From: a virus | Lineage: Duplodnaviria > Caudoviricetes | Reading direction: 5' to 3' (one strand) | Virus record (IMG/VR): IMGVR_UViG_3300023275_000004 | Location: 1-64,000 of that record | DNA: 64,000 nucleotides | In this document: positions 2,338 through 16,756 of the stretch, one piece after another | Layout: every line of letters starts with the position of its first letter | Position numbering within the stretch: position 1 is the first letter of the stretch | The notes under the pieces: model-generated | Databases searched by the model: none | What the model saw: the letters and a program-made list of their open reading frames with translations, nothing else | Told to the model about the DNA's origin: nothing | Made by a program: the position numbers and the translations under genes

Positions 2338-3348
2338 TCAGTTACCAGTCGCTACATCGGCAACATACACGAACTGCTCAGGACGGGTGATAACTGGCAA
2401 CATGTGCCATTCGAGCAAATACTGCCTTGCAGAAGGGTCCTTTTCCTTCCATGTCTTGCTGAACTTACCAGTGTAGTTCGATGGAGCCTCGTCGTCGGCT
2501 GTTGGGCCTTCGATAAGCTCAATCGGACGCTGGTCGGTAAGGTTACCGAAGATCAGCGAGTCATCGTTAAGGAAGTTAACCTGGTTACCGTTGTCATCGT
2601 CATAAACGTGCTCAACTAGGTTCCAGTTAACACCCATGAAGCCCTGAAGCATACCAGTACGGTAATACTCGTCCTTCATACGGTCGCTCATAAGAGCGGC
2701 ACCTGGGAAGTTAGTGGCACCAGTTGCAGCGAATGCGTTGAAGATGTAGGCCATAACCTTCTCAGAAGCCCAAGCTTCCTTGGCCTCAACGCGACCGTCA
2801 CGACGTACAAGCTTCTTCATGGCACGGATGTCGTCAACAATGTTGGCAGGAGTATCTGTGTGCCAAGTGAAACCGGTTAGCTTGTGGCTAGCTGGAAGCT
2901 TGTAGTCAACCGACGCCTGAACGTCTGGGTAGTCGAATACTAGCGTACCAGTAAGGGCCTGCCAGATGCAATACTCAGCGAAGTTGTCGAACCTCTGGTT
3001 AAGGTCAGTTACCTCACGAAGAACAGCCTGCTCAGCGTTCCTACCGGCTAGCTCACCTGGAGTACGAAGCCAGTGAAGTGTAGTCGGCTCGAAAACCTTC
3101 TTCTCACGAAGGTAAACGAACGCTGCACTTTCCTGCGAACGGCCTAGACGAGGAACGATGTGTGCCTCAGAGTTTGGAACGTTAGGCTTGGCGATAGCAC
3201 GCGAACCCTTAATAACATCCCAAGTAGCAGATGGGTAAGGCCATGGAGTGCGGTTAATGCGGTTAAGCATAATTAGATTCTCAGGAGCCGTAAGCTTCTC
3301 GACTACGCCGCGAAGTACGACAGGCTCCAAAAGTGGAATATTAGGCAT
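2338..3348 (-). CDS. Major capsid protein (lambda gpE / phage cap E-like, HK97 fold)
   Basis: 336 aa; EYCIWQALTG..VDY and KTWKEKDPSARQYLLEWHMLPV match the cap E family; follows decoration and protease genes. Confidence 0.85.
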   Translation of the reverse strand: MPNIPLLEPVVLRGVVEKLTAPENLIMLNRINRTPWPYPSATWDVIKGSRAIAKPNVPNSEAHIVPRLGRSQESAAFVYLREKKVFEPTTLHWLRTPGELAGRNAEQAVLREVTDLNQRFDNFAEYCIWQALTGTLVFDYPDVQASVDYKLPASHKLTGFTWHTDTPANIVDDIRAMKKLVRRDGRVEAKEAWASEKVMAYIFNAFAATGATNFPGAALMSDRMKDEYYRTGMLQGFMGVNWNLVEHVYDDDNGNQVNFLNDDSLIFGNLTDQRPIELIEGPTADDEAPSNYTGKFSKTWKEKDPSARQYLLEWHMLPVITRPEQFVYVADVATGN

Positions 3349-4037: not shown

Positions 4038-5093
4038 TCACTTAGCCATCTCGGCATAGCGCTTGATGGCCTCGTCAACATTAATCTCGGCACTCTCGGA
4101 CTCACCAGGAGCCTCGCCAGTACCAGACTCGTTACTGAGCTTAACAATTGCCTCGGCTGGTACAAGCTTCTCGAAAAGCTCGGGCTGCTTTGTGCTTAGC
4201 TCGATCATTGCGTCACGCTGTGCTGGAAGTACGCGACCCTCTGCGACTAGGGCGTCAACCTTAGCCTCATTAGCCTGCTTCTCTACTTCCTCAAGTCGGT
4301 TGCTCATAGCTACATAACCTGTAGCCATCTCGGATACGGCAGCAACAATCTTCTCGTCAGCTACCTTAGCGCCCGCTGAAAGCTCGATTAGCCCCGAAGC
4401 CGTAAGGGCCTCTGCCAGGGTATTCGACAGCTTAGCAGCAGATGCATTCTCAGTAACCTTCTTCTGAAGGTCAATAACATCAATGCCGTGCTCATCCTTC
4501 AAAGCATCAAGCATCTCTTCTAGCGTCTGCATATCAGTATTCTCCTTAAGCGTCGGCCCTGTCAGTAGAACCGCTTCACCAGAATTATCGGCTGTAGCTG
4601 CAACAATCTCTTCATATTCGTCCAGACCAGTCACATACGGACGGTTAGTAACGCATACGTGAAGAAGGGTTGGCCCAACCTTCTTACCATTCTTTGTATT
4701 TGTGTAATTCAAATGCATCATTGCTGACGCACCAAGCATGGTCTTACCAAGCTTGTCTGCACTTGCCTTATCCCTAGCATCGATCAGGGCGTAGACTTTG
4801 TTATCCTTCTCTTCAATACCAATTACTTCACCGATATTGCGAGTTGGGTCTTCCGAATGCTCATTCTTATCGTTGGCTACAGGAACCTGCACGATATCGC
4901 AAACGCCATCCTGGAAGTTCTTGGTAAGCTTTGCAACAAAGTCATCATCAACCTTAATTTTCGTTCCTGGGAACGCTGGATGATGTAATTCGCCCTTGTT
5001 TAGAATGTGCTTGCGGAACAGACGACCACTCTTAGTACGAGAAAGTTCAACATAGCCCTCACCATCGGAAGGGACGATTACGAACTCGTTCAC
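4038..5093 (-). CDS. Prohead protease / scaffolding protein (Mu gpI-like)
   Basis: GPTLLHVCVTNRPYV (Mu I-type protease TN-P motif); C-terminal helical scaffold VDALVAEGRVLPAQRD. Confidence 0.8.
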   Translation of the reverse strand: MNEFVIVPSDGEGYVELSRTKSGRLFRKHILNKGELHHPAFPGTKIKVDDDFVAKLTKNFQDGVCDIVQVPVANDKNEHSEDPTRNIGEVIGIEEKDNKVYALIDARDKASADKLGKTMLGASAMMHLNYTNTKNGKKVGPTLLHVCVTNRPYVTGLDEYEEIVAATADNSGEAVLLTGPTLKENTDMQTLEEMLDALKDEHGIDVIDLQKKVTENASAAKLSNTLAEALTASGLIELSAGAKVADEKIVAAVSEMATGYVAMSNRLEEVEKQANEAKVDALVAEGRVLPAQRDAMIELSTKQPELFEKLVPAEAIVKLSNESGTGEAPGESESAEINVDEAIKRYAEMAK

Positions 5094-5420: not shown

Positions 5421-5773
5421 ACTGCATCCGGTCCTGACTTCATAAGTTCCGCCAACTCTGGCGAAATATTGGCACTCCAGATCATAGGCTTATCAAAGCC
5501 TTCCACCTCTACTTCTGCGAGAAGTGGTTTTTCTTGAATATTTCTATAAGAAGTAATCTGACCAACAAATGTCTTTGGTACATCAAAAACTCGTAGCTCT
5601 ACTACAGGATCTAAACCCTTCATGTCTACGACAGAAATTTTCCATATCCTATAGTGAGGAGCGGACTCCGAATTCTCGGAGCCCTTCCACGCCATGAGAA
5701 GCCCATTAGGAAAATTTTTATCAATGCGCTTCTGCCACTTGTCGGCCGTTACGTTAGGCTGAGGATTAGTCAC
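5417..5773 (-). CDS. Hypothetical 118-aa protein (candidate immunity/chaperone for the giant protein)
   Basis: GTGA overlap with the stop of the 2348-aa gene. Confidence 0.55.
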   Translation of the reverse strand: MTNPQPNVTADKWQKRIDKNFPNGLLMAWKGSENSESAPHYRIWKISVVDMKGLDPVVELRVFDVPKTFVGQITSYRNIQEKPLLAEVEVEGFDKPMIWSANISPELAELMKSGPDAV

Positions 5774-8700
5774 TTACTCCACGCCTCCTTTGCGGCCTTC
5801 TGTGCTGCCATAATGTCATTCTTATTACGCATTACAAAGCGTTGTTCTACAGGCACTCCACGAATCTCATCAACGCCCATATCCTTCAACATCTTAATAA
5901 CCTTATTGCGAAGGACTTCATCAGTGAAGGTAACAATCTCAATATCATCAAGAGTTGAAACTGCATGCTTAATCATAATTTCGTTACCACTGCCACTATG
6001 CTTTGACAGAGCATCGAAATCAAAATACGCTTCTTCTGGCTTACTCTTAATGTTTCCATAATTATCGCCAGCATATGAATAGTTATGAGTACGCTTCAGA
6101 ATCTTAGGATTGTAGTAAACACCCATAAGTCCATAGGAATTAGTACTGGCACTTACTTCCTGGTTCTGACGAATAAACACAAAGCCTGATGATCCATGGC
6201 TCTGGTCAGCAGAAGACGACATTCCATCTTTCCACATTCCAAGCGTACGAAGTCGAGCTTCTGTAGAAAGCATTCCACCAGTGGTAACTGTGTACTGAGC
6301 AGCTTCATCTTGATAGAAACTTCCAGCAAGAAGCTGCTTACTCTGAGCCTCCTCATCAGTTACATCAAAACGCTCCCAATAAGGCTGGCCAGAATACTTA
6401 TTCTGATCTGCCATATGGAAGTGTCCAAACTTAGGAAGATGCCCGCCACTTCCCACAAACTCGTCAATTTGCTCACGAGAAGTGATATTAGCAAAAGCAT
6501 TTCTCCAAGCTTCAATTTCTTCCGCAGGAGTCATATTTGCAGTTTCTACTGGCTTAGCTGCCTTAAACTTATTGTACTTACTAGTAGATTTAGTTTGAGC
6601 TGGGTAGTTATCCTTAGAATCCGCACGGGCTGCCATGATTCCAGCCAAGTGACGCCAATAATAAAGCTCCAGATCATCCTCGTTAGCTTCATTCATAGAA
6701 AGACCCATCTCTGCCATTTGAGCGCGAATACGCTCAAGAGATGCTGCCTCTTCTGCGCCCGCAGGCATAGTGAATCGCGTCAGCCCCTTTGAAGCGGCTG
6801 GCGTACCTGTAGTATTGCCACGGAATTCGATTGTTTCACCAGTTGGAAGCGTAACAAGATACATGCTTCCAGGGTTTCCGTTCTCGTCATATCCAAACTT
6901 GTGGTGAAGCTGACCATCCTCGTCAAACTGAGGAACACCATTCTTAACAGCCTTAGGACTGCTAGCCTGACGAAGCTCTACCTTAACTCCAACACCATCA
7001 GTTGATTCAGGCTTATCTTCCTTAGGAGGAGTGTAAACAAATCTTTCAAACTCGCCAGGAGAGCTCTTAGTTCCGTTCTTCTTGTGCTCCTCAGCCTTCT
7101 TGATGTAGCCCAAATAAGTCTGTGCCATCTCCAAGAATGCTTTAGGGTCCTTATACTGCTTGGCAAGAGCAGCATTTTGAGTAGGATCTGCCATTTTGGC
7201 ATCATAGTCATTAATGTAATTCTGAAGTGTATTCTTAACAAAACTCATTCCATTAAGTTTTCCTTCATTGTACTGACCATCAAGTGCATGATGAGAAATT
7301 GTCTTCACACCAGCAATAATCTGCTGGTAGTAGTCGCCCTCATTTGGAAGCTCAACCTTCATGCTACTAGGTGTAAACCCATAGGCATTGCCCACCTGAA
7401 CAGCATTATCTTTAAGCCACTTCTCCACATCCTTGAATGCCTTAGTCTCTTCACGAATCTTCATTTCTCCGTGAAGAGTGTCCTGGCCTGTCTTACTCTT
7501 AGCATGATAAAGAAGAACATGAGCATCTTCAATTTCTGGCCCACCGAAGAATACAGAAGCTCCATAGGAACCGTTAGCCTTAGCCTGCTCAAGAGCAGCA
7601 GGAGTAATGCCAAGATGAATTTCCTGGTCATCATCATTGACAACAATATTTTCTGGAGGCTGAGGCTTTGTATATCCAGCCCTCTTAAAGACATTACCCC
7701 AAAGCTTTTCCATATCATCCACAAGAGAATTCTTGCGATCAAGAGCACGCTGGATGGCGTCTTCTTTATTAGAAGGGCCTCCAAACCCCCAAACCTTTCG
7801 GTTGGCAAATCCTCTCTCAAGAATTTCTGTCATCTTTGAGTCAGAAATTTTAGACATCTTACGAGCTTGCTTAAGTACAGAGAAGTAAGCTGCATTTGCG
7901 TCTTCTTGAGAAATGCTCTTGTTAGCGATAGCGTCATAAAGCTTAGTGTAAACCAAATTTGCACGAGAATCGGCCTTGGAATCTCCAGTAAGGCCATCCC
8001 AGTGACCAATTCCTACAAAGGCACGCCCTTTATCGATACCAACGACGCTTCCATTCTTAAGGATTAGAAGATTCGCGGCATGACCGTCATCGTTATCCAA
8101 CGCCCAGTCAAGCAAATGCTCTTTGGCAAGATCCTGGATCTGAGCAGTATTTAGATCTGTCACTGACGCCTTGGTAAAATCTTTCTCAGCATCGAGCATC
8201 TGCTGAACATGACCCTTACGGTTATCAAATTCAGTGATATGCGACTTTGCTGTCTTGAATCCCCAAGCACTAGACAACTCATGGGCAGCCTGCTCTACGT
8301 CAGCCAAGAAAATATCCTTGTCCTGACGTGGCTTATAAATCCACTTCTTACCAAACTGATCCGACAGAACCATAGCCTCGTGGGTGCTGGTTACTGTCTT
8401 TCCAGACTCCAAGGTGAACTTAGGCTTCATAGCCTCAGCTAGTTCTGCGGCAGCCTTTGCTGCTTCTTCAGCCTTCCTGTTCTCCATGTGCGAGTTAATA
8501 GGCGTGGCCCAGTCATAGACATAGCCGTTCTTCATACTTTCTGGCACAGAATCAGGGAATTCAGCTGCATAAGACTTCAACGCTTCTTGAGGCCAGGAAT
8601 GAGCTGAGCCTCCAGCCTTGTAATACTCATCGTGTGGCTGATAAGGCTTAACATTAGGAGTGAACTTAGGCTTACTTGAATAAAGAGCCGAAGGATCTTT

Positions 8701-11700
8701 ATCATGACGCTTCTTAGCCTTAAGCGAAAGAACATCCGCTTGAAGCTTAGAACCATTCATGTGGTAGTGAACCCAGTACTTCTTATCAGACGAATCCAAA
8801 TACTCTGGATAAGCCATGTTGGCAGCCAGGATGTAATTATCGATCTCGGCATCTGACATCTTGTATCCATCAGGAGACCATTTTCCTTCTGGAATCTTTC
8901 CAGCAGGAAGTTCACCAGGAACCGCAGCGGCCCAGATAATTTGATGAGTATCCTTATTAAGTGGCGAACCAGGATGTGTCTTATCATCAACTGGCATACC
9001 AGCATAGGTCTCAATTTGGTAGAGCTGTTTCATGTTTCCAGCCTGGAAAGCAGACATCCAGTCAGTCTTCTTATAAGAATTCAACTTGCTTGGAGACTGA
9101 CCAATAACCTTTCCATTACCTACCTGACTAGCAACTTTCTTGATCATGGCATTTTGCTCTGAAGAGCTTCCCCAGTGAAAATTCTGTGATTCTTCCTGGG
9201 ATAGTTCAGGCATGATGTAATAGCCCTGAGAGTCCTTCCCAAAGGCTGCTTTAGCTGCGTTAGGTACAGCCTCTACTGAAGGCTTGTCAGCCTGCTTTGT
9301 TGTAACTCCATGAAGAAGATCATCAATTGCCTTGATCATAGACTTACGAGCTGATCCTGAAGTGTTAGGAAAATACTTTTCAGCGTAGTCTACAAGGAAA
9401 TCAACGTTAATCTGACCGGTAAGCTTCTTAAGCTTAGTCAGAGACCCGTATTCCTCAGAAGTTAGATCGTTACGAAGCTCCTGAAGCTGCTCAGCACTAA
9501 CTTTGTTAGGACCAGCAAACAAGTGATAACCCGAAGGCTTCCCCCCTCCAGGAATTACGACAGTATTTCCAAACTCATCTGTTACCCAGCCTGTACTAAA
9601 GGTACTAAGAACTGCCTCAGCATCGACTGGAATTGCATCCTTACCCGTAGTCTTAAGCAGACCACTACCATCTGGAAGAACTTCAACTGTATGAGCACTA
9701 TCAAATGGCGCATCAAACGAATGGAAATAGTAAGATCCTGTGGCAGGACCGCCTACCTTAGTCTTTTCGGCAGACTGAGCTGGCCCAGCGGCACTTTCAA
9801 CTGGACCTGAATAAACCTTCATACCAGCGTCCCAATTCTTCTTAAACGCGGCAGCGGTTAGCTTCTTCTTGTCGCCCTTCTTATTCACATAGTAAACAGA
9901 GCCGTCGCCATGAACCTCAAGGAAGGCTTTGGCAAACTCCTTACCAATAGAATACTTTCCTGGCTTTACATCCATACCAGAAATTTTAACAGACTTTGGT
10001 GACTCTGTCGACTTTGGAGCATTAATTACTTCCTGAGCAGCCTTCTCAGCATCGGTCTCATTAGGTCCAACTGATGCTTCATTAGGAACATGAACAAGTT
10101 TAGTATCAGACTTATCCTCTACTAGACCTCCGTTACCTATAGCTGACTCAATTTCGGAAGTCATATAATTACTGGCCTTCTTGCTCCCTAACTTAGAAAC
10201 AACAGTCCACTCTTTGGTGTCAGGATCTTGAAGGTACTTCACACCTGAATTTTCAGGTGCAGTAACTGCGGAGTAAAATACCTTAGTTCCATCAGGGAAT
10301 GGTCCAAACTTGCTGTCACTACCAATCTTTACATAAAGACTCTTGTCACTCTTCTGCTCAGCTACTGAGTGATACTTTACCCACTTCGTTAGCGTCCCTG
10401 CGCCAATTTGTTCAAGCCTAGCGTCTTTTTCGTTGCCAGTAACTTCCTTAATTCCTGTTGCCGCTCCTAGTCGCCACATAGTTCCATCAGGAGTTACAAC
10501 ATAAGCAGTAGACGCCAAGTCAGGACTTGCATTCTTGGCGACATAAACAGAAGAGCCTTCTGGAAAGTCTTTATTAGTTCCGCCATTAGCCGAATTCAAA
10601 GAAACATTGAATGTCTTAACTGAGTCATCTACCGGCGTAACATCCTTAGGTTCCCACTCGGCATAAGTTCCTGTACCAATATAGTGCTCAAGAAGCTCCG
10701 CAGTTTGCTGCTTAAGAGGCTTTTCTCCAGAAGAGCTAAGGGTATGCCATGACTTATCTGGATACTGAACATACAAGACTGCAATATCCTGCTTGTTCTT
10801 ATTATTACCTGTTACATAAAACTTAGACCCCTTGGGAACAGTGTGTTCAACATCTGAATCAGCAAAACTTGAAGTAAAGACCTTGATAGTCTTATCTTCA
10901 GACTTATTGGATGGAGCATCGCCTTCCGGCAAAATGTCTCCATTAGCTTTCTTCTTATCCAATTCAGACTTGGCCCAGTCTGAATTTAGAAGGGTATTGG
11001 AACCCTTATCAACATAGAACCACTGACCGTCCTTCTCCTGCACATACTTATACATCGCTGTTTCAGGAGTAGCATTCTTACCGTAGTAAACTACTGCGTC
11101 TTCTGAAAAGGTACCTTTTTCTTTTCCTTCAATGCTTACAGTCTTAGTATTTTTTGACTTATCCTCTTCAGCCTTCTTAGCATCCTGCTTGGCCTTAAGT
11201 TCTATGGCTGCTTTCTTGGCAGCATCAATAGCCGGAGACGCCTTAGGCGATTCCGGTGCCTTTGGTGCTTCAGGAGCATTCTTACTCTCTACAAGCTTTC
11301 CATTCTCATAACTGTCACCTTTTTTAATAGCTCCAGTATCAGAGGTAAGAAACTTGTTCATGCCAAGCTTCCAATGACCCTCAAACGACTTAGGGCCAAT
11401 TTTCTTACGATCGCCGTTCTTGTTCTCGTACTCCGCTGTTCCGTCAGGATGTACGATCAAGAAAGCCTTAGCGAAGCCCTTAGGGCGAGAGTAACGACCA
11501 ACCTTTACTGTCAAATTACCAATCTTGACAGTATCCGGCTGACCCTCTTCTGGCTTACTGACAGGAGCAACCTTAGGCTGCTCCTTCTTAGCCTCAGCGG
11601 ACTTACTGCTGTCAATGAGATCCTTCTCCCATGCAGGGATGTCTGCCTGCTTCTGAGCAGGCTTAGCAGCCTCCTGAGGCTTAACCTCGGAAGCTGGCTT

Positions 11701-12816
11701 GTCTGGAGTCTTCGATCCAATAGGAGTCACAGGCTCTACCTTAGCAGAGCTAGGTTCCTGAGCGCTAGTCTTGTCAGAAACTAGCTTTCCATCCTGGAAA
11801 TGAGAATCCTTCTTGATAGGATCAGTAGACTCCGTCAAGAACTTGTTCATTCCTAGAGACTGATGACTCTCAAAAGACTTGGCAGTAATCTTCTTACGCT
11901 TACCAGTCTTGTCCTCGTACTCAATCGTTCCATCTTCGTGAACGATTAGGAACGCCTTAGCGAAGCCCTTAGGACGAGAGTATCTACCTACCTTGACATC
12001 CTTACCATTAATTTTAACAGTCTTCGATGTTGACTTTTCGGCAGGCTTAGTATCTGTCTCTGGCTTGGAAGTTTCCTTCTTAGCGGGAGAAGAATCCTTG
12101 GATTCTAGTGAGTCCACCTTGTCAGAAAGCTTCTGCAACTTCTGAAGAAGAGTTTTAACCTCTGGATCATAAGGAGTCTTTCCATTAGCAAAGTGGTCCT
12201 GAATCTTACTTGTAAGATCTGATTCAGTCGATACTGGCTCAGCATCAGGAATGTGACTAGAGTGAACTAGTCCCTTAGCTTCCATAGCCTGAAGAGCATT
12301 AACCTGCCCAGAAGTAGCTAGAACCTCTGTCTTTACCTGACCATTTTCGTAAGTCTGGGTATACCACTGACCATCCTTCTTCTGTACCCAACCCATAGTT
12401 GCCTTTGAAGGGTCATTTACAAAAGAGGATACATAAAAAGCATCAATATCATTCTTAGTCTGCCCACCAGGAACGCCAGTTATAGGGGCCTGCTTTGGCT
12501 GAGCTAGATTTCCAGAAGGTGCAGATACCTTAGGTGTAGAAGGCTTATTAGGTAGGTTCGTAGAACCTGACGACGAAGCTGCACCACTAGACTTATTAAT
12601 GTCCGAGTGCAGGCTCTTAGTAGCTGCCTCAGTAGCCTTCTTAGCAGCCTTTTCGATCATGTCCTTGGTGATGATAGTTCCGATAGGCTGATCGTACTTC
12701 TTTACGCCTTCAGGAGTACGCACCTTACGCTGCGCAAGCATGATCTCATCAGGATCATCATTTGAAGCCTTCATCTTAGCAAAAGCTTCGATGATTCTAA
12801 TAGTTTGCTCGTCCAC
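5770..12816 (-). CDS. 2348-aa multidomain (polyvalent) head-associated protein with internal repeats, HipA/PI3-4K-like kinase domain and C-terminal ART-like domain
   Basis: Located between portal and protease; WIYKP...LDWALDNDDGHAANLL...GIDKGRAF kinase motifs; GGMLST...NEIMIKHAV C-terminal motifs. Confidence 0.7.
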   Translation of the reverse strand: MDEQTIRIIEAFAKMKASNDDPDEIMLAQRKVRTPEGVKKYDQPIGTIITKDMIEKAAKKATEAATKSLHSDINKSSGAASSSGSTNLPNKPSTPKVSAPSGNLAQPKQAPITGVPGGQTKNDIDAFYVSSFVNDPSKATMGWVQKKDGQWYTQTYENGQVKTEVLATSGQVNALQAMEAKGLVHSSHIPDAEPVSTESDLTSKIQDHFANGKTPYDPEVKTLLQKLQKLSDKVDSLESKDSSPAKKETSKPETDTKPAEKSTSKTVKINGKDVKVGRYSRPKGFAKAFLIVHEDGTIEYEDKTGKRKKITAKSFESHQSLGMNKFLTESTDPIKKDSHFQDGKLVSDKTSAQEPSSAKVEPVTPIGSKTPDKPASEVKPQEAAKPAQKQADIPAWEKDLIDSSKSAEAKKEQPKVAPVSKPEEGQPDTVKIGNLTVKVGRYSRPKGFAKAFLIVHPDGTAEYENKNGDRKKIGPKSFEGHWKLGMNKFLTSDTGAIKKGDSYENGKLVESKNAPEAPKAPESPKASPAIDAAKKAAIELKAKQDAKKAEEDKSKNTKTVSIEGKEKGTFSEDAVVYYGKNATPETAMYKYVQEKDGQWFYVDKGSNTLLNSDWAKSELDKKKANGDILPEGDAPSNKSEDKTIKVFTSSFADSDVEHTVPKGSKFYVTGNNKNKQDIAVLYVQYPDKSWHTLSSSGEKPLKQQTAELLEHYIGTGTYAEWEPKDVTPVDDSVKTFNVSLNSANGGTNKDFPEGSSVYVAKNASPDLASTAYVVTPDGTMWRLGAATGIKEVTGNEKDARLEQIGAGTLTKWVKYHSVAEQKSDKSLYVKIGSDSKFGPFPDGTKVFYSAVTAPENSGVKYLQDPDTKEWTVVSKLGSKKASNYMTSEIESAIGNGGLVEDKSDTKLVHVPNEASVGPNETDAEKAAQEVINAPKSTESPKSVKISGMDVKPGKYSIGKEFAKAFLEVHGDGSVYYVNKKGDKKKLTAAAFKKNWDAGMKVYSGPVESAAGPAQSAEKTKVGGPATGSYYFHSFDAPFDSAHTVEVLPDGSGLLKTTGKDAIPVDAEAVLSTFSTGWVTDEFGNTVVIPGGGKPSGYHLFAGPNKVSAEQLQELRNDLTSEEYGSLTKLKKLTGQINVDFLVDYAEKYFPNTSGSARKSMIKAIDDLLHGVTTKQADKPSVEAVPNAAKAAFGKDSQGYYIMPELSQEESQNFHWGSSSEQNAMIKKVASQVGNGKVIGQSPSKLNSYKKTDWMSAFQAGNMKQLYQIETYAGMPVDDKTHPGSPLNKDTHQIIWAAAVPGELPAGKIPEGKWSPDGYKMSDAEIDNYILAANMAYPEYLDSSDKKYWVHYHMNGSKLQADVLSLKAKKRHDKDPSALYSSKPKFTPNVKPYQPHDEYYKAGGSAHSWPQEALKSYAAEFPDSVPESMKNGYVYDWATPINSHMENRKAEEAAKAAAELAEAMKPKFTLESGKTVTSTHEAMVLSDQFGKKWIYKPRQDKDIFLADVEQAAHELSSAWGFKTAKSHITEFDNRKGHVQQMLDAEKDFTKASVTDLNTAQIQDLAKEHLLDWALDNDDGHAANLLILKNGSVVGIDKGRAFVGIGHWDGLTGDSKADSRANLVYTKLYDAIANKSISQEDANAAYFSVLKQARKMSKISDSKMTEILERGFANRKVWGFGGPSNKEDAIQRALDRKNSLVDDMEKLWGNVFKRAGYTKPQPPENIVVNDDDQEIHLGITPAALEQAKANGSYGASVFFGGPEIEDAHVLLYHAKSKTGQDTLHGEMKIREETKAFKDVEKWLKDNAVQVGNAYGFTPSSMKVELPNEGDYYQQIIAGVKTISHHALDGQYNEGKLNGMSFVKNTLQNYINDYDAKMADPTQNAALAKQYKDPKAFLEMAQTYLGYIKKAEEHKKNGTKSSPGEFERFVYTPPKEDKPESTDGVGVKVELRQASSPKAVKNGVPQFDEDGQLHHKFGYDENGNPGSMYLVTLPTGETIEFRGNTTGTPAASKGLTRFTMPAGAEEAASLERIRAQMAEMGLSMNEANEDDLELYYWRHLAGIMAARADSKDNYPAQTKSTSKYNKFKAAKPVETANMTPAEEIEAWRNAFANITSREQIDEFVGSGGHLPKFGHFHMADQNKYSGQPYWERFDVTDEEAQSKQLLAGSFYQDEAAQYTVTTGGMLSTEARLRTLGMWKDGMSSSADQSHGSSGFVFIRQNQEVSASTNSYGLMGVYYNPKILKRTHNYSYAGDNYGNIKSKPEEAYFDFDALSKHSGSGNEIMIKHAVSTLDDIEIVTFTDEVLRNKVIKMLKDMGVDEIRGVPVEQRFVMRNKNDIMAAQKAAKEAWSK

Positions 12817-12992
12817 AGCCCTCTCCTATCTAGTCACCTACTAAATCGGACGATCAGTAAATTTTCTATCGTCGGATACTTTTTATTTTGTCACGTACTT
12901 TAGAAAAAATACTGAGACTGTTACTTTTTTTACTAGTTACAGGGACAGATTTAAAGTTTCCATCCCTGTAGCTAATAACGTAAAACAACGGC

Positions 12993-14879
12993 TCACTTTC
13001 CGGACTTTGGCTTGACATCTCCACTACCCTCTTCAGGAAGTTCCCAACCTGACGCTACGAACTGAGCTGGATCAAACTTTTGCCTTCTAGAAATGTTTCC
13101 AGAGGCATCTTGAACAGCTACAGTTCCATCGCCATAGACTAGAACCTTGGCTCCCTCGTGGTGAGGATGACGAAGAACCATCATAACACCTGCCCCACCC
13201 TGAGGAGCTGCACCTGTAGAAGCTGGCTGAGCAACAACGGGCTTATTTGGGAGGTTAGGAGCTACAGGAGCGTTCCCTGGAGCACCATCCCCGATAACAG
13301 TACCTATAGGCTTATTGTAGCGCTGCACACCTGTTTGAGAGGCTACCTTACGAGCTAGCTCTACGACATCCTCCGGAAGTACAGCAGTTAGCTGGAAGCC
13401 TTCAGGAAGCGCCGCAGGAGGCACACCTACAGGAGTGGTACCAGAAGCATCAGTAGGCGCTCCTGAGCCGTCTGAGAGGGCAGGATCGGCCTGTGGCTGC
13501 ATAGCCGCTAGTTGCGCCTGCTGAGTCTGAAGAGCCATCTCCTTCTGCTGCTCACGCTCTTTAGTAATTGGGTCCCAGTCAATCTCAAGACCAAGCTCTT
13601 CAGCCATCTGCTTCTCAAGCTCCCATACAAATTCTGGTGAAATTGTAAGAGTCTGACCAGCAGTAGATAGCTTATCGAACGTGTCCTTCATTGCACCCTT
13701 CTGCTCATCAGTAAGTGGTCCCCACTGGAATCTTGGATACTTACCTGAGTTGAAGTTCCAATCAATAAAACGAGGAATAATCTGGTTATTAATAACATCA
13801 GAAATTTCACGCATGATTGTATGAAGCATAAGCATGAACAATGAATCATCCTGCTTACCAAAATCTACAAGACTTGAATCGCCACCACTACCCTGCTCCG
13901 TATCAAAGAATGGGGCAAGAATAGACTTGGACATCTGAGAATTATGATGATTGATGTATTGAAGGAAATCAAACGAGCCAGCTTCCTTAAGACTCTCAAC
14001 TTCATATCCCTCAGGAACAGCAATATACTGAGCTAGACCTACATCAGCTAGCGCCTTCAGGAATCTATTCTTCTCAGTCACATTAGCATTCTTAGGAATA
14101 GTTCCTACTCTGGTACCCATAGCAGCTCTCTGAGCAGCAACATGTAGCAACCAATAAAGCTTTACCTTCTTGTCATAGTGATAGAAGGCAGCCTTAAAAT
14201 ACGACTGTCCGTAAAATGGGCGCTCATCTTCGTTAGCTGTGTAGTAAACAGCATCATCCTTAGGAATTTTTACGTCAATAAGCTCGCCATTAAAGTATGT
14301 CTGCTGACGGAATCCTTCAAAATTTCCATTACGATCAATCAAGAACTTTACCGTCTCGGCTGGACGATAAGCTACCTTCTTAAGAGTGTACTTACCCTTA
14401 AGGGGTCCTGTAGTAGGAGTCCAGTACACCAGTTCAAATGGTGCGAAACCATCAAAGACAGCTCTTAGCATCTGAGAAATTACTAGCGGGAAAGGAGTAA
14501 GCATTCCACCTGATGAGGCTGGAAGAGTGAACATCTTGTTAATGAAGTCAGCTTCCTTCTCTCCGCCACTCTCAAGATCTGTAGGAATGACTGTAGAGGA
14601 CTTCAGAGCAGCCTGAATAGGGCGGGTAAGTAGCCTGTATAGAGCCTGAGCCTGTCCGTCTGATTGACGCATAGCTACAAGCTTTTTTACAGAAACTTCT
14701 TCCTCGCGTGGAAGTTCCCAAGAATTTTTAAACTCGTTCAGGAAAGGAAGATAGAAACTATGTCCTACTTCAACTTCTGTCTCTGGACGAGGGATAGACA
14801 TGCTTGAAAGTCCATCACGTGCTGCTAGCTCAATTACCTCTTCGTCGCCAGGTAGCGACGCTTCTAGATTCTCAGACAT
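12993..14879 (-). CDS. Portal protein (DUF935 / Mu gp29-like) with long C-terminal extension
   Basis: GFAPFELVYW, PFYGQSYFKAAF..Y..K, FLQYINHHNSQMSKSIL, INNQIIPRFIDWNF...YPRFQW; directly after terminase. Confidence 0.85.
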   Translation of the reverse strand: MSENLEASLPGDEEVIELAARDGLSSMSIPRPETEVEVGHSFYLPFLNEFKNSWELPREEEVSVKKLVAMRQSDGQAQALYRLLTRPIQAALKSSTVIPTDLESGGEKEADFINKMFTLPASSGGMLTPFPLVISQMLRAVFDGFAPFELVYWTPTTGPLKGKYTLKKVAYRPAETVKFLIDRNGNFEGFRQQTYFNGELIDVKIPKDDAVYYTANEDERPFYGQSYFKAAFYHYDKKVKLYWLLHVAAQRAAMGTRVGTIPKNANVTEKNRFLKALADVGLAQYIAVPEGYEVESLKEAGSFDFLQYINHHNSQMSKSILAPFFDTEQGSGGDSSLVDFGKQDDSLFMLMLHTIMREISDVINNQIIPRFIDWNFNSGKYPRFQWGPLTDEQKGAMKDTFDKLSTAGQTLTISPEFVWELEKQMAEELGLEIDWDPITKEREQQKEMALQTQQAQLAAMQPQADPALSDGSGAPTDASGTTPVGVPPAALPEGFQLTAVLPEDVVELARKVASQTGVQRYNKPIGTVIGDGAPGNAPVAPNLPNKPVVAQPASTGAAPQGGAGVMMVLRHPHHEGAKVLVYGDGTVAVQDASGNISRRQKFDPAQFVASGWELPEEGSGDVKPKSGK

Positions 14880-14899: not shown

Positions 14900-16756
14900 T
14901 TAAAAATCGGTTGGTGGCTCGTAGTACATATTTGAAATTTCAAAGCCAGCAAATTTCTCTACTTTAGTACCAACCAAAATTTCAAATTCTTCGTAGTGGG
15001 CTTCTCCACCGTCAGGATCTTCCTCTCCACCAAGATCAACGGCACCAAAAGCAGCACATGCAAGAGCATCCGCCTCATCTTTACTACCAGTGGTAGGGTG
15101 ATCAACTTTTCCATTTGGTAGCTGGTTAAGACTCAGTAGTTCGTTCATCACCAGGTCACGCTTAGGAATCCAGATACGACCATCGTGAATAAGGTCCTTA
15201 AGATTCCTCCAAGGCTCAGAAGAACGATCCGTAGAAACCCTGTCAGACTCGATTCCATGAATGTCTTCAAGAATCTGCATAGAGTCCTTCGACTGGAATC
15301 CATCGAAAGTGAACCTCTGAATGTTGAATCCACGCTTCTTTAGCTCCAGGCAGAGCTGCCTAGCCCAGCGAATTTGGATTTCACGTGGAGGTTTTGCAGA
15401 AATATCAGCCTCGTAAGAAATTACAAAGTCCATCTTAACATTAGGGCGCATTTCTCTAACTGTAATTTCTGCGCCATCTTCGTCATAGATGATATCTTCA
15501 AATTCTTCTTGACTGATTACGTGAGCCATAGCGATACCAGCGCGGTCACCATTAATGGCAAGGTCACCATGCATAGCGTACCTAGCGCCATTGATAGGAA
15601 TGAAGTCTGGAGCAAAGTCGTACTCTGGCTTCCAGGTTTCGCCATCCTGTACGTACCTTACTGTAATAGGCTCCTGCGCAACGTCATGGAAAACGCTCTT
15701 AACAGCAGCTTCGTTCCTGAAGTAAGGATTTACAGCCCTAGCTGGCTTGCACTCATACTTAGCAGCAGCCTCGATAGGATCTTTTTTGTACTGAGTAGCA
15801 AATTTTTCAGGTCCCGTAACACGTGGATTTACTTCCCACGTAGCATATGGACCAGAAACATAACTCTTAGACTCCTCGCCCATCTCTTCATTATCCTCCT
15901 TGCCCTCATTAATGAGAGACATGATAGGAGAACCCAAATAACGAGGGTACGAGATGGCTACCAGCTTATAGATATCTGGAAAACGAGTAGAAGCCGAAGA
16001 ATCCATCATGTTCATGATGTGTTCGGCTGAGTTCGTGATAGAAGAAGATCCCTTACGCTTGCCATCAAGAGCTGAAGGAAAAGCGTCAATTTCGTCAGCG
16101 ATGCCTAGCAGTAGGTTTAGACCTTCCTGACTTTCAGCATCAGAGTGACCAGAAATAGCTAGAACGTTCTTGTCAAACTCGACCTGATTCATGGTTGGAT
16201 TACACTTGTCCTCGAACCAGCCTTTTTTTACGGCTCTTTTAATAGGATCGAAGAAGGCAAGCATAGCCTGACGAGCGTTAGTAGCTACGTTCAAGGTGTG
16301 AATAGAGTCAGCATCAGGCATTTCATAGTAAAGCTGGGGTGACTTCAGGGTCAGTAGCAAGTAAATTACGCGGAGGGTAGCAACACGTACTGTGTTGTCT
16401 TTTCCGGCTCCCTTACCCCACATCGCTGTAATTTTGTTCGTCATACGAACTTGCTGACCCCAGTAAGGCTCTTCACGATAAGTAGCAAATGAGCCTACTA
16501 CCAGTCTGGACTTCTTGACTTCAGTCTCAGCTAGCAAAGCGATAGTGTCAGGAAAGTAAATCTGCTCGATCTGGCGAACGAGATTCCATTGGATAGGACT
16601 CAACTGGAATTTGGTACCAAGAGATGCCCCTAGATACTTTCTGTCTGAAACAAAAGTATCTAGGGGTACCGGAATCTCGTCAAAGAGGTCGTCTAGATCG
16701 GAATCCGTAGTTCGATCTAGAGTAGCTTCTCCAAGCAGCCTCGATAGGTCGCTCAC
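14900..16756 (-). CDS. terL: Terminase large subunit
   Basis: Walker A WGKGAGKD, Walker B IADEID, RNase H-like nuclease motifs HGDLA / TFDGFQS / KDEADALA. Confidence 0.9.
   Translation of the reverse strand: MSDLSRLLGEATLDRTTDSDLDDLFDEIPVPLDTFVSDRKYLGASLGTKFQLSPIQWNLVRQIEQIYFPDTIALLAETEVKKSRLVVGSFATYREEPYWGQQVRMTNKITAMWGKGAGKDNTVRVATLRVIYLLLTLKSPQLYYEMPDADSIHTLNVATNARQAMLAFFDPIKRAVKKGWFEDKCNPTMNQVEFDKNVLAISGHSDAESQEGLNLLLGIADEIDAFPSALDGKRKGSSSITNSAEHIMNMMDSSASTRFPDIYKLVAISYPRYLGSPIMSLINEGKEDNEEMGEESKSYVSGPYATWEVNPRVTGPEKFATQYKKDPIEAAAKYECKPARAVNPYFRNEAAVKSVFHDVAQEPITVRYVQDGETWKPEYDFAPDFIPINGARYAMHGDLAINGDRAGIAMAHVISQEEFEDIIYDEDGAEITVREMRPNVKMDFVISYEADISAKPPREIQIRWARQLCLELKKRGFNIQRFTFDGFQSKDSMQILEDIHGIESDRVSTDRSSEPWRNLKDLIHDGRIWIPKRDLVMNELLSLNQLPNGKVDHPTTGSKDEADALACAAFGAVDLGGEEDPDGGEAHYEEFEILVGTKVEKFAGFEISNMYYEPPTDF

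Follow-up and report, generated by a model that had tools for sequence, protein, structure and literature searches.

A short motif shared by a giant protein and the portal tail of a tailed phage, and its possible role as a loading header for capsid-interior proteins

The first 64 kb (here called the window) of a 125.6-kb tailed-phage record that is ~98% complete (IMGVR_UViG_3300023275_000004) contain a head gene module in which two proteins share a short motif. One is a giant protein of 2348 residues, which bears the motif near its N terminus; the other is the portal protein, which bears it in a C-terminal tail. The motif is very probably an uncatalogued, widespread header module that stands ahead of capsid-interior proteins or of protein modules. 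What might such a header do? The explanation favored here, to which we give about an even chance, is that it serves the loading or retention of proteins in the capsid interior.

The giant gene (positions 5770 to 12816, minus strand) begins at a GTG codon after an AGGAG ribosome site and encodes the core of the motif at residues 30 to 49 (RKVRTPEGVKKYDQPIGTII; 12670 to 12729, minus strand). The portal gene (12993 to 14879, minus strand) encodes 628 residues, of which residues 70 to 413 match the Portal_Mu family (PF06074; E value of 2.3e-38, 132.8 bits, above the family cutoff); the motif core lies at residues 510 to 529 (RKVASQTGVQRYNKPIGTVI; 13293 to 13352, minus strand), within a C-terminal extension of ~170 residues. 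An earlier note on this DNA had proposed that these two segments share a motif, and both the likeness and the placement have held up. Residues 22 to 49 of the giant and 502 to 529 of the portal are identical at 12 of 28 positions (BLASTP E value of 2e-4). A profile drawn from 31 copies that occur in other phages, with this genome's own sequences excluded, was run against the 2075 six-frame open reading frames (ORFs) of the 125.6-kb genome and returned the giant (E value of 3.3e-13) and the portal (1.1e-9), the next match standing at 0.66. The whole genome thus holds exactly two copies, both within head genes, and further carriers are found in related phages. The earlier note had made its proposal hinge on conservation in homologs, and this is strong: the motif is nearly invariant in 10 of 10 close portal homologs, which are 63 to 86% identical to the window portal in the tail and 80 to 96% over the whole protein, while the linkers on either side vary in length and sequence. 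A copy is likewise kept in all eight giant homologs found, again amid variable linkers. Several portal and giant homologs can be paired by the length of their longest contig, which is identical within each pair and suggests a common contig of origin.

The core of the header, which is ~21 residues long, reads R-x-V-R-T-x-x-G-x3-[YF]-G-x-P-I-G-x-x-I. Over 288 copies, it can be written as [V]-R-[RHY]-V-R-T-[PA]-[AE]-G-x-[RK]-[RK]-[YF]-G-x-P-I-G-[STA]-x-I, in which the V and the first G are invariant and the P, the last G, and the I are present in 93 to 96%. Its conserved hydrophobic positions are V, Y, I, and I; basic residues fill most of the variable ones. In the portal tail, AlphaFold models the motif as a strand, a two-turn helix, and a strand (predicted local distance difference test score [pLDDT] of ~72), between linkers that score below 50 and are predicted to be disordered. 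No model or match covering the motif was found in Pfam (E value of ≤10), NCBIfam, or the ESM Atlas; a sequence comparison with solved structures gave no match; and a Foldseek search of the giant's N-terminal model against the PDB returned nothing below an E value of 0.1. Two PHROGs with suggestive labels, 960 ("HNH endonuclease") and 2659 ("RNA ligase"), were rejected as the motif's identity, being heterogeneous profiles that merely contain it. A degenerate MuF zinc ribbon was also rejected, as the motif appears in the MuF alignment as an insertion that other MuF domains lack.

How widespread is the motif? Among 80 related loci gathered via the portal, it occurs on portal C-terminal tails and at the N termini of giants (1650 to 3125 residues), of small ORFs right after the portal (e.g., gp14 of the Microbacterium phage Magritte), and of Zeta-toxin proteins. 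In MuF proteins of ~335 residues, it forms an insertion of ~30 residues between the CxxC and HxxCxC zinc ligands, and other giants in these loci lack the motif and begin with a MuF domain. In five related phage genomes (four complete, one ~74% complete), there are one to three strong copies each, lying within a few kilobases; two extra matches near the E value cutoff of 0.01 fall outside these clusters and resemble noise. When 1.84 billion representative proteins were searched, at least 1147 motif-bearing protein clusters emerged at an E value of ≤1e-3. When the best 150 carriers were rescored, most had two copies and some as many as seven, and the server counted 12 matched stretches in one carrier protein. 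The first copy begins within 60 residues of the start in 99 of 148 top carriers, and the median distance between copies is ~275 residues. The domains found behind the motif belong to head proteins and to effectors that phages deliver, and include topoisomerase IB, ADP-ribosyltransferase, Zeta toxin, glutamine deamidase, LysM, 2H ligase, GNAT, PI3/4-kinase-like, MuF, and S78 protease domains, and some carriers combine several effector-type domains in one chain. Carriers range from a phage of 45% G+C to phages of high-G+C Actinobacteria, and some motif-bearing contigs were binned with metagenome-assembled genomes (MAGs) of Proteobacteria. A strict DNA pattern, which covers only forms with CGN-coded Arg, Tyr, and ATH-coded Ile, had only seven matches across 185,579 species genomes; two of these matches encode ADP-ribosyltransferase toxins, and at least one adjoins a MuF gene. 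This small number argues that the motif lives mainly in virulent or uncultured phages.

Three further observations concern the carriers. The small proteins encoded right after the portal form a family of their own, with an N-terminal motif, a linker, and a conserved helical segment (R-P-V-T-x-x-R-L-x-S-L-x-R-Q-F-x-x-A-K-x-x-G-N); members occur in L001 (10665 to 10991, Magritte gp14), L055, L066/67, L071, L082, and L086, and the family has no Pfam or PHROG match. Two loci (L057, 3221 to 4099, and L060, 2839 to 3933) hold ORFs of 293 to 365 residues with a portal-type copy (..VRTMAG..RY.KPIG.QLG) ~7 kb upstream of the portal; these ORFs have no family matches, and the giants of these phages start with MuF. 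Finally, type IB topoisomerase is the commonest recognizable domain behind the motif, present in 8 of 66 midsize carriers (P0045, P0046, and P0028 are among the library examples), and in P0183 it is fused to a portal. Many phages may therefore carry topoisomerase IB in the capsid, as poxvirus virions do.

The giant protein has no Pfam or PHROG family and no MuF domain, and there is not one cysteine in its 2348 residues; its sole domain signal is a subthreshold, 16-bit match to the kinase-like HipA_C family. Behind the motif, residues 50 to 73 (TKDMIEKAAKKA...; 12598 to 12669, minus strand) include a predicted helix (residues 51 to 73) that is conserved as I-T-x-D-x-I-x-x-A in other giants. Between the giants of the window phage and of Magritte, the closest named phage (54% identity in the portal), the header is the sole shared part, which is the pattern expected of a targeting module on variable cargo. 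Giant-type headers exceed the core: a hydrophobic-E-L-A helix precedes the motif, the I-T-x-D-x-I-x-x-A helix follows it, and ~12 residues past this second helix stands a mini-motif, G-x-(T/K)-P-P-K-(G/N)-A-L-(S/T). This extended form was seen at the giant N termini of loci L022, L058, L061, L066, L069, L070, and L082. The window clade lacks the mini-motif, and the hexapeptide NLPNKP occupies a similar place. The first ~1000 residues of the giant hold several kinds of small beta-rich repeats set between linkers rich in Lys, Pro, Ala, and Ser. One kind, the R repeat, occurs three times, as R1 (residues 261 to 334; 11815 to 12036), R2 (residues 424 to 497; 11326 to 11547), and R3 (residues 937 to 1008; 9793 to 10008), all on the minus strand. 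In most other giants, the R domain is single and internal (L022, L062, L070, L071, L082, and L089), and in phages without a giant, it appears as a stand-alone small gene of 98 to 113 codons right after a tailed portal (L004, 3144 to 3437; L005, 3289 to 3627; and L046). A Foldseek search of the R domain against the PDB gave no match.

The portal tail continues past the motif into a conserved small C-terminal domain, here called T (residues 556 to 612; 13044 to 13214, minus strand), and stops ~16 residues further on, with no effector domain at its end. Seven portal homologs exceed 1100 residues, and all seven are portal-cargo fusions. In P0177, the order is portal, motif, T domain, ADP-ribosyltransferase, and R domain; in P0178, it is portal, motif, T domain, and Zeta toxin. 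The window portal (P0001) is colinear with residues 2 to 683 of P0178, through the linker, the motif, and the T domain, and only the toxin is missing, which argues that the tail is the proximal stump of a portal-borne cargo arm. The idea of the earlier note that the tail is a miniature version of the giant gains support from these two fusions, in which motif and T domain run on into a toxin. The arrangement as a whole suggests that portal and downstream cargo gene undergo fusion and fission at the header. One further element was seen at the other end of the portal: residues 12 to 20 (DEEVIELAA; 14820 to 14850) resemble the hydrophobic-x-L-A helix ahead of the motif (VVELARKV in the portal tail, DEIMLAQRKV in the giant), and BLASTP pairs the portal N terminus with the premotif segment of P0178. 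This could be a second short element or a coincidence. As to C-terminal processing of the Mu portal, a literature search yielded no usable result.

Two further claims of the earlier note stood only in part. It had likened the end of the portal to the giant's repeat. The T domain aligns with the R repeat in hhalign (probability of 61%, E value of 8e-5, over 28 columns), and it shares with the C-terminal half of the repeat the predicted order strand-DGT-strand-strand-helix; however, hidden Markov models (HMMs) of T and R each miss the other, and the likeness is weak but plausible. Neither domain was detected in Magritte or in the loci with MuF insertions, so an R or T domain is not supported as a universal partner of the motif. 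The note had also pointed to NLPNKP, which is indeed present in both linkers, at residues 87 to 92 of the giant (12541 to 12558, minus strand) and 541 to 546 of the portal (13242 to 13259, minus strand). A shared hexamer in just these linkers arises in 0.015% of shuffles, and one anywhere in both proteins arises in ~7%. The two DNA copies differ at third codon positions. NLPNKP is not conserved, being absent from the closest giant homologs and from the closest portal homolog (96% identical overall, 86% in the tail). It is not supported as a functional element and is treated here as a low-complexity coincidence or a lineage-specific feature.

Several cultured phages carry the motif: Magritte (gp14 and gp17), the Brevibacterium phage Cantare (gp11 and gp12), and the Gordonia phages DalanDe (gp21, gp22, and gp27, the last a 1633-residue S78-protease protein) and GMA2 (Orf10, labeled a head maturation protease in RefSeq, and Orf13). 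In Cantare and DalanDe, the capsid protein is of the HK97 type and the protease is S78; the Cantare portal combines Phage_portal with MuF. The window phage has a gpE-type capsid protein, a Mu gpI-like protease, and a Portal_Mu portal, which argues that the motif is independent of head gene families. In the head-module protein gp12 of Cantare (L085, 10808 to 12118), the motif runs straight into LysM, with one Pfam match and a second LysM-like segment recognized by eye; the LysM begins directly past the motif, and the notion that the motif is part of the LysM domain was discarded. From its sequence, gp12 is a candidate for an ejected protein that would grip the cell wall.

Is any carrier present in virions? 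Dyson et al. 2015 identified three GMA2 proteins in purified virions, among them Orf10 at 29% coverage (PMC4524720 Table S5). When the peptides were placed on the translation by eye, the most N-terminal one from Orf10, KYGVPIGSPINAAK, proved to be the second half of the motif, and none lay N-terminal of residue 141 (PMC4524720 Table S5). In this one phage, then, a carrier is in the virion, the motif is retained, and no cut has been made between PIG and S. Self-cleavage at that site was rejected accordingly, since the intact tryptic peptide spans it.

How would a loading or retention header work? What we infer is a docking function, its timing, and the nature of a partner. The header would dock its module to a common internal partner during procapsid assembly; the docked module would be enclosed, kept near the portal, and later exit with the DNA. 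The 2348-residue protein would be cargo with a single N-terminal header. The portal would present the same header and a small domain on a flexible linker of ~50 residues. Portals are normally dodecamers; if this one is too, there would be twelve such cargo-arm stumps per head. This explanation is favored because the motif is the only conserved part of otherwise unrelated cargo, because it heads effector modules and is confined to head modules, because proteins with prohead-protease domains, which are necessarily enclosed, carry it (DalanDe gp27), and because a carrier was detected in GMA2 virions. The earlier note had thought of a capsid-targeting or ejection-channel signal that protease cleavage might expose. 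As far as sequence can tell, a head-loading role would fit the whole set of effector, protease, MuF, and portal proteins of head modules, as well as the GMA2 detection.

Several points weigh against a loading header. No binding partner or receptor for the motif was found. The motif spans unrelated portal (Portal_Mu and Phage_portal), capsid (gpE-like and HK97-like), and protease (Mu gpI-like and S78) families, which is awkward if its binder is a structural protein, since such proteins evolve fast. The motif is carried by portals and MuF proteins, for which a loading tag should be unnecessary. Some proteins, P0026 among them, combine a MuF domain with up to seven motif copies in one chain, which implies that the motif does more than replace a MuF anchor. 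It stays on the GMA2 virion protein, unlike the T4 targeting peptide. Finally, in an AlphaFold model of the giant's N terminus, built from a shallow alignment, the motif scores a pLDDT below 50. A bolder version of the proposal, which seems to us rather doubtful, is that the motif is a lineage-independent loading header: a small folded module that, whatever the portal, capsid, or protease family, finds its docking site in some structurally conserved part of the portal or the procapsid interior and suffices for any cargo behind it.

Short targeting peptides in heads have precedents. The capsid-targeting sequence of T4, found on IPI-III and Alt, is ~10 residues long, is limited to T4-like phages, binds the scaffold core, and is removed by gp21. 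The motif resembles it as a short peptide common to otherwise unrelated head-interior proteins and N-terminal on free cargo, and as one that would make cargo recognizable and permit the loading of heterologous proteins. It differs in being ~21 residues long, predicted to be structured, and spread over unrelated head gene families, in occurring also internally, in portal tails, and in the MuF loop, and in its retention in the GMA2 virion protein. The T4 sequence stands at the extreme N terminus of the cargo precursor; a place near the N terminus was seen for the motif in the giant and in the 99 top carriers mentioned above, and a different one in portal tails, MuF insertions, and internal copies. 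Other short, conserved peptides, those that load cargo into encapsulins and the C-terminal targeting tail of the HK97 prohead protease, sit at the ends of diverse cargo and bind the inside of an HK97-fold shell. These peptides are as a rule terminal and single copy, whereas the motif, which has no sequence similarity to them, is often internal and repeated.

Other parallels lie in the cargo itself. The MuF N-terminal domain heads phage polymorphic toxins (Jamet et al. 2017, PMC5576092), and MuF proteins are enclosed through portal binding (PMC6316719). Motif carriers resemble MuF polymorphic toxins in their gene slot, which follows the portal, and in the range of toxin domains fused to them. 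MuF (PF04233), unlike the motif, is a zinc-binding domain with a 112-position Pfam profile, and the two are not homologous, as the motif appears as an insertion within MuF. The window phage has no MuF: PF04233 gave no match at an E value of ≤10 across the whole genome, and local MuF profiles came up empty too. MuF is thereby excluded as a universal receptor for this phage. Iyer et al. 2017 (PMC5512222) described polyvalent proteins, which are giant multi-enzyme proteins of the head module with a predicted injection into the host, and effector fusions to portal domains. The giant is like polyvalent proteins in its size and in its place in the head module, where its gene lies between those of the portal and the Mu gpI-like protease, and the window portal follows the plan of a portal-effector fusion up to the cargo arm, with the effector domain at the end of the arm missing. 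The domain repertoire of carriers as a whole resembles those of phage polyvalent proteins and MuF polymorphic toxins (PMC5512222, PMC5576092). No mention of the header motif was found in either paper (PMC5512222, PMC5576092). In Iyer et al. 2017 (PMC5512222), no wording was found that names a linker, a short motif, or an N-terminal one, and the account given there includes neither the header nor its occurrence on stand-alone portal tails.

Could the motif instead mark where proteins are cut? In this explanation, which we consider unlikely, the motif and the E-x-K that frequently accompanies it would form a junction or processing signal for a head maturation or cargo peptidase, loading would be achieved otherwise, and each mature module would start at a motif after cuts in polyproteins and portal-cargo fusions. 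E-x-K occurs within 10 residues upstream of 50% of 202 internal copies, against a background of 4%, and [LIVM]-E-x-K upstream of 32%, against 1%. The copies lie between modules, at the median spacing given above. In portal-toxin fusions, the motif stands where the portal gives way to cargo, a point at which release would have to occur; on the other hand, it is missing from five of seven portal-cargo fusions. E-x-K is absent from both window copies and from giant-type headers. The Mu gpI-like and S78 proteases are unrelated, so a shared specificity is improbable; the conserved V, T, G, Y, P-I-G, and I look fold determining, unlike a cleavage consensus; and a cut inside the MuF zinc-binding loop would split that domain. 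As for GMA2, the earliest Orf10 peptide begins inside the motif, and the silent 140 residues before it are compatible with a cut upstream of the motif, which at 29% coverage, on which the argument depends, is only a hint.

A second possibility, to our minds distinctly improbable, is a DNA tether: the motif would be a small basic element with affinity for packaged DNA of any sequence, by which portal tails, MuF, and cargo modules cling to the genome and exit together with it, as has been proposed for the MuF protein gp7 of SPP1. Across phages whose portal, capsid, and protease families are unrelated, DNA is the only partner that stays the same. Counting the invariant V as 0, Arg occupies position −2 in 86% and +1 in 81%, Arg or Lys is found at +7 and +8 in ~63%, and several copies per protein would make binding multivalent. 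SPP1 gp7 is described as a protein that binds DNA and that the portal targets to the procapsid (PMC6316719). Proteins, however, enter the procapsid before DNA, so that the loading of cargo in which only the header is conserved would go unexplained, and proteins with prohead-protease domains, which are active before DNA arrives, are carriers as well. The motif has no similarity to any solved DNA-binding protein, and portal-type copies have Ala, Asn, or Ser in place of the Arg at +1.

Might the motif come into play only once it has been ejected, by attaching to a conserved host component that would position or shield each effector module? We think this very unlikely. Effector-type enzymes do dominate the carriers, and a motif retained on a virion protein would enter the cell. 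Portal tails, MuF loops, and prohead-protease proteins, though, act inside the capsid and carry it all the same, and no single host target is evident, given contexts that range from 45% G+C to high-G+C Actinobacteria and Proteobacteria MAGs. That the likeness is a matter of chance or composition without function, as the pairwise BLASTP E value of just 2e-4 might on its own allow, is practically inconceivable, being refuted by the independent profile (E values of 3e-13 and 1e-9, with nothing else in the genome), by the 1147 library carriers, and by the conservation of the motif amid variable linkers.

The remaining genes of the head module lie on the same minus strand. The large terminase (14900 to 16756) precedes the portal. 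Past the giant come two small ORFs, then the Mu gpI-like prohead protease/scaffold (4038 to 5093), a candidate partner or processing enzyme of the motif, a gpD-like decoration protein, and the major capsid protein of the lambda gpE family (2338 to 3348), another candidate partner. The 176-nucleotide spacer between portal and giant (12817 to 12992, minus strand) has a predicted fold of −53.6 kcal/mol (z score of −5.3 relative to shuffles), with a long perfect hairpin followed by an A run. A second hairpin, with TCCGA(C)GAT and ATCGTCCGAT boxes on its arms, stands just 5' of the giant's ribosome site.

Overall, what would a header of this kind mean for phage biology? To our knowledge, only proteomics of cultured phages can at present show which proteins a phage carries in the head and injects. 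If a loading role is true, a header with more than 1000 carrier clusters would let head cargo be predicted from metagenomic sequence, including toxins, kinases, topoisomerases, and cell wall binders, and may allow injected phage effectors to be recognized from sequence alone. It would explain how giant proteins without a MuF domain enter the capsid, would bring MuF, free cargo, and portal-effector fusions together in a single evolutionary scheme built on fusion and fission at the header, and would give actinobacterial and related phages a short tag by which their particles could be loaded with foreign proteins; cultured carriers exist in Magritte, Cantare, DalanDe, and GMA2. If the motif is instead a processing or DNA-binding element, it would still be a very widespread element of phage head biology that has not been catalogued. 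Should the lineage-independent version be true, the header would mark, in the sequences of thousands of uncultured phages, the proteome that they inject.

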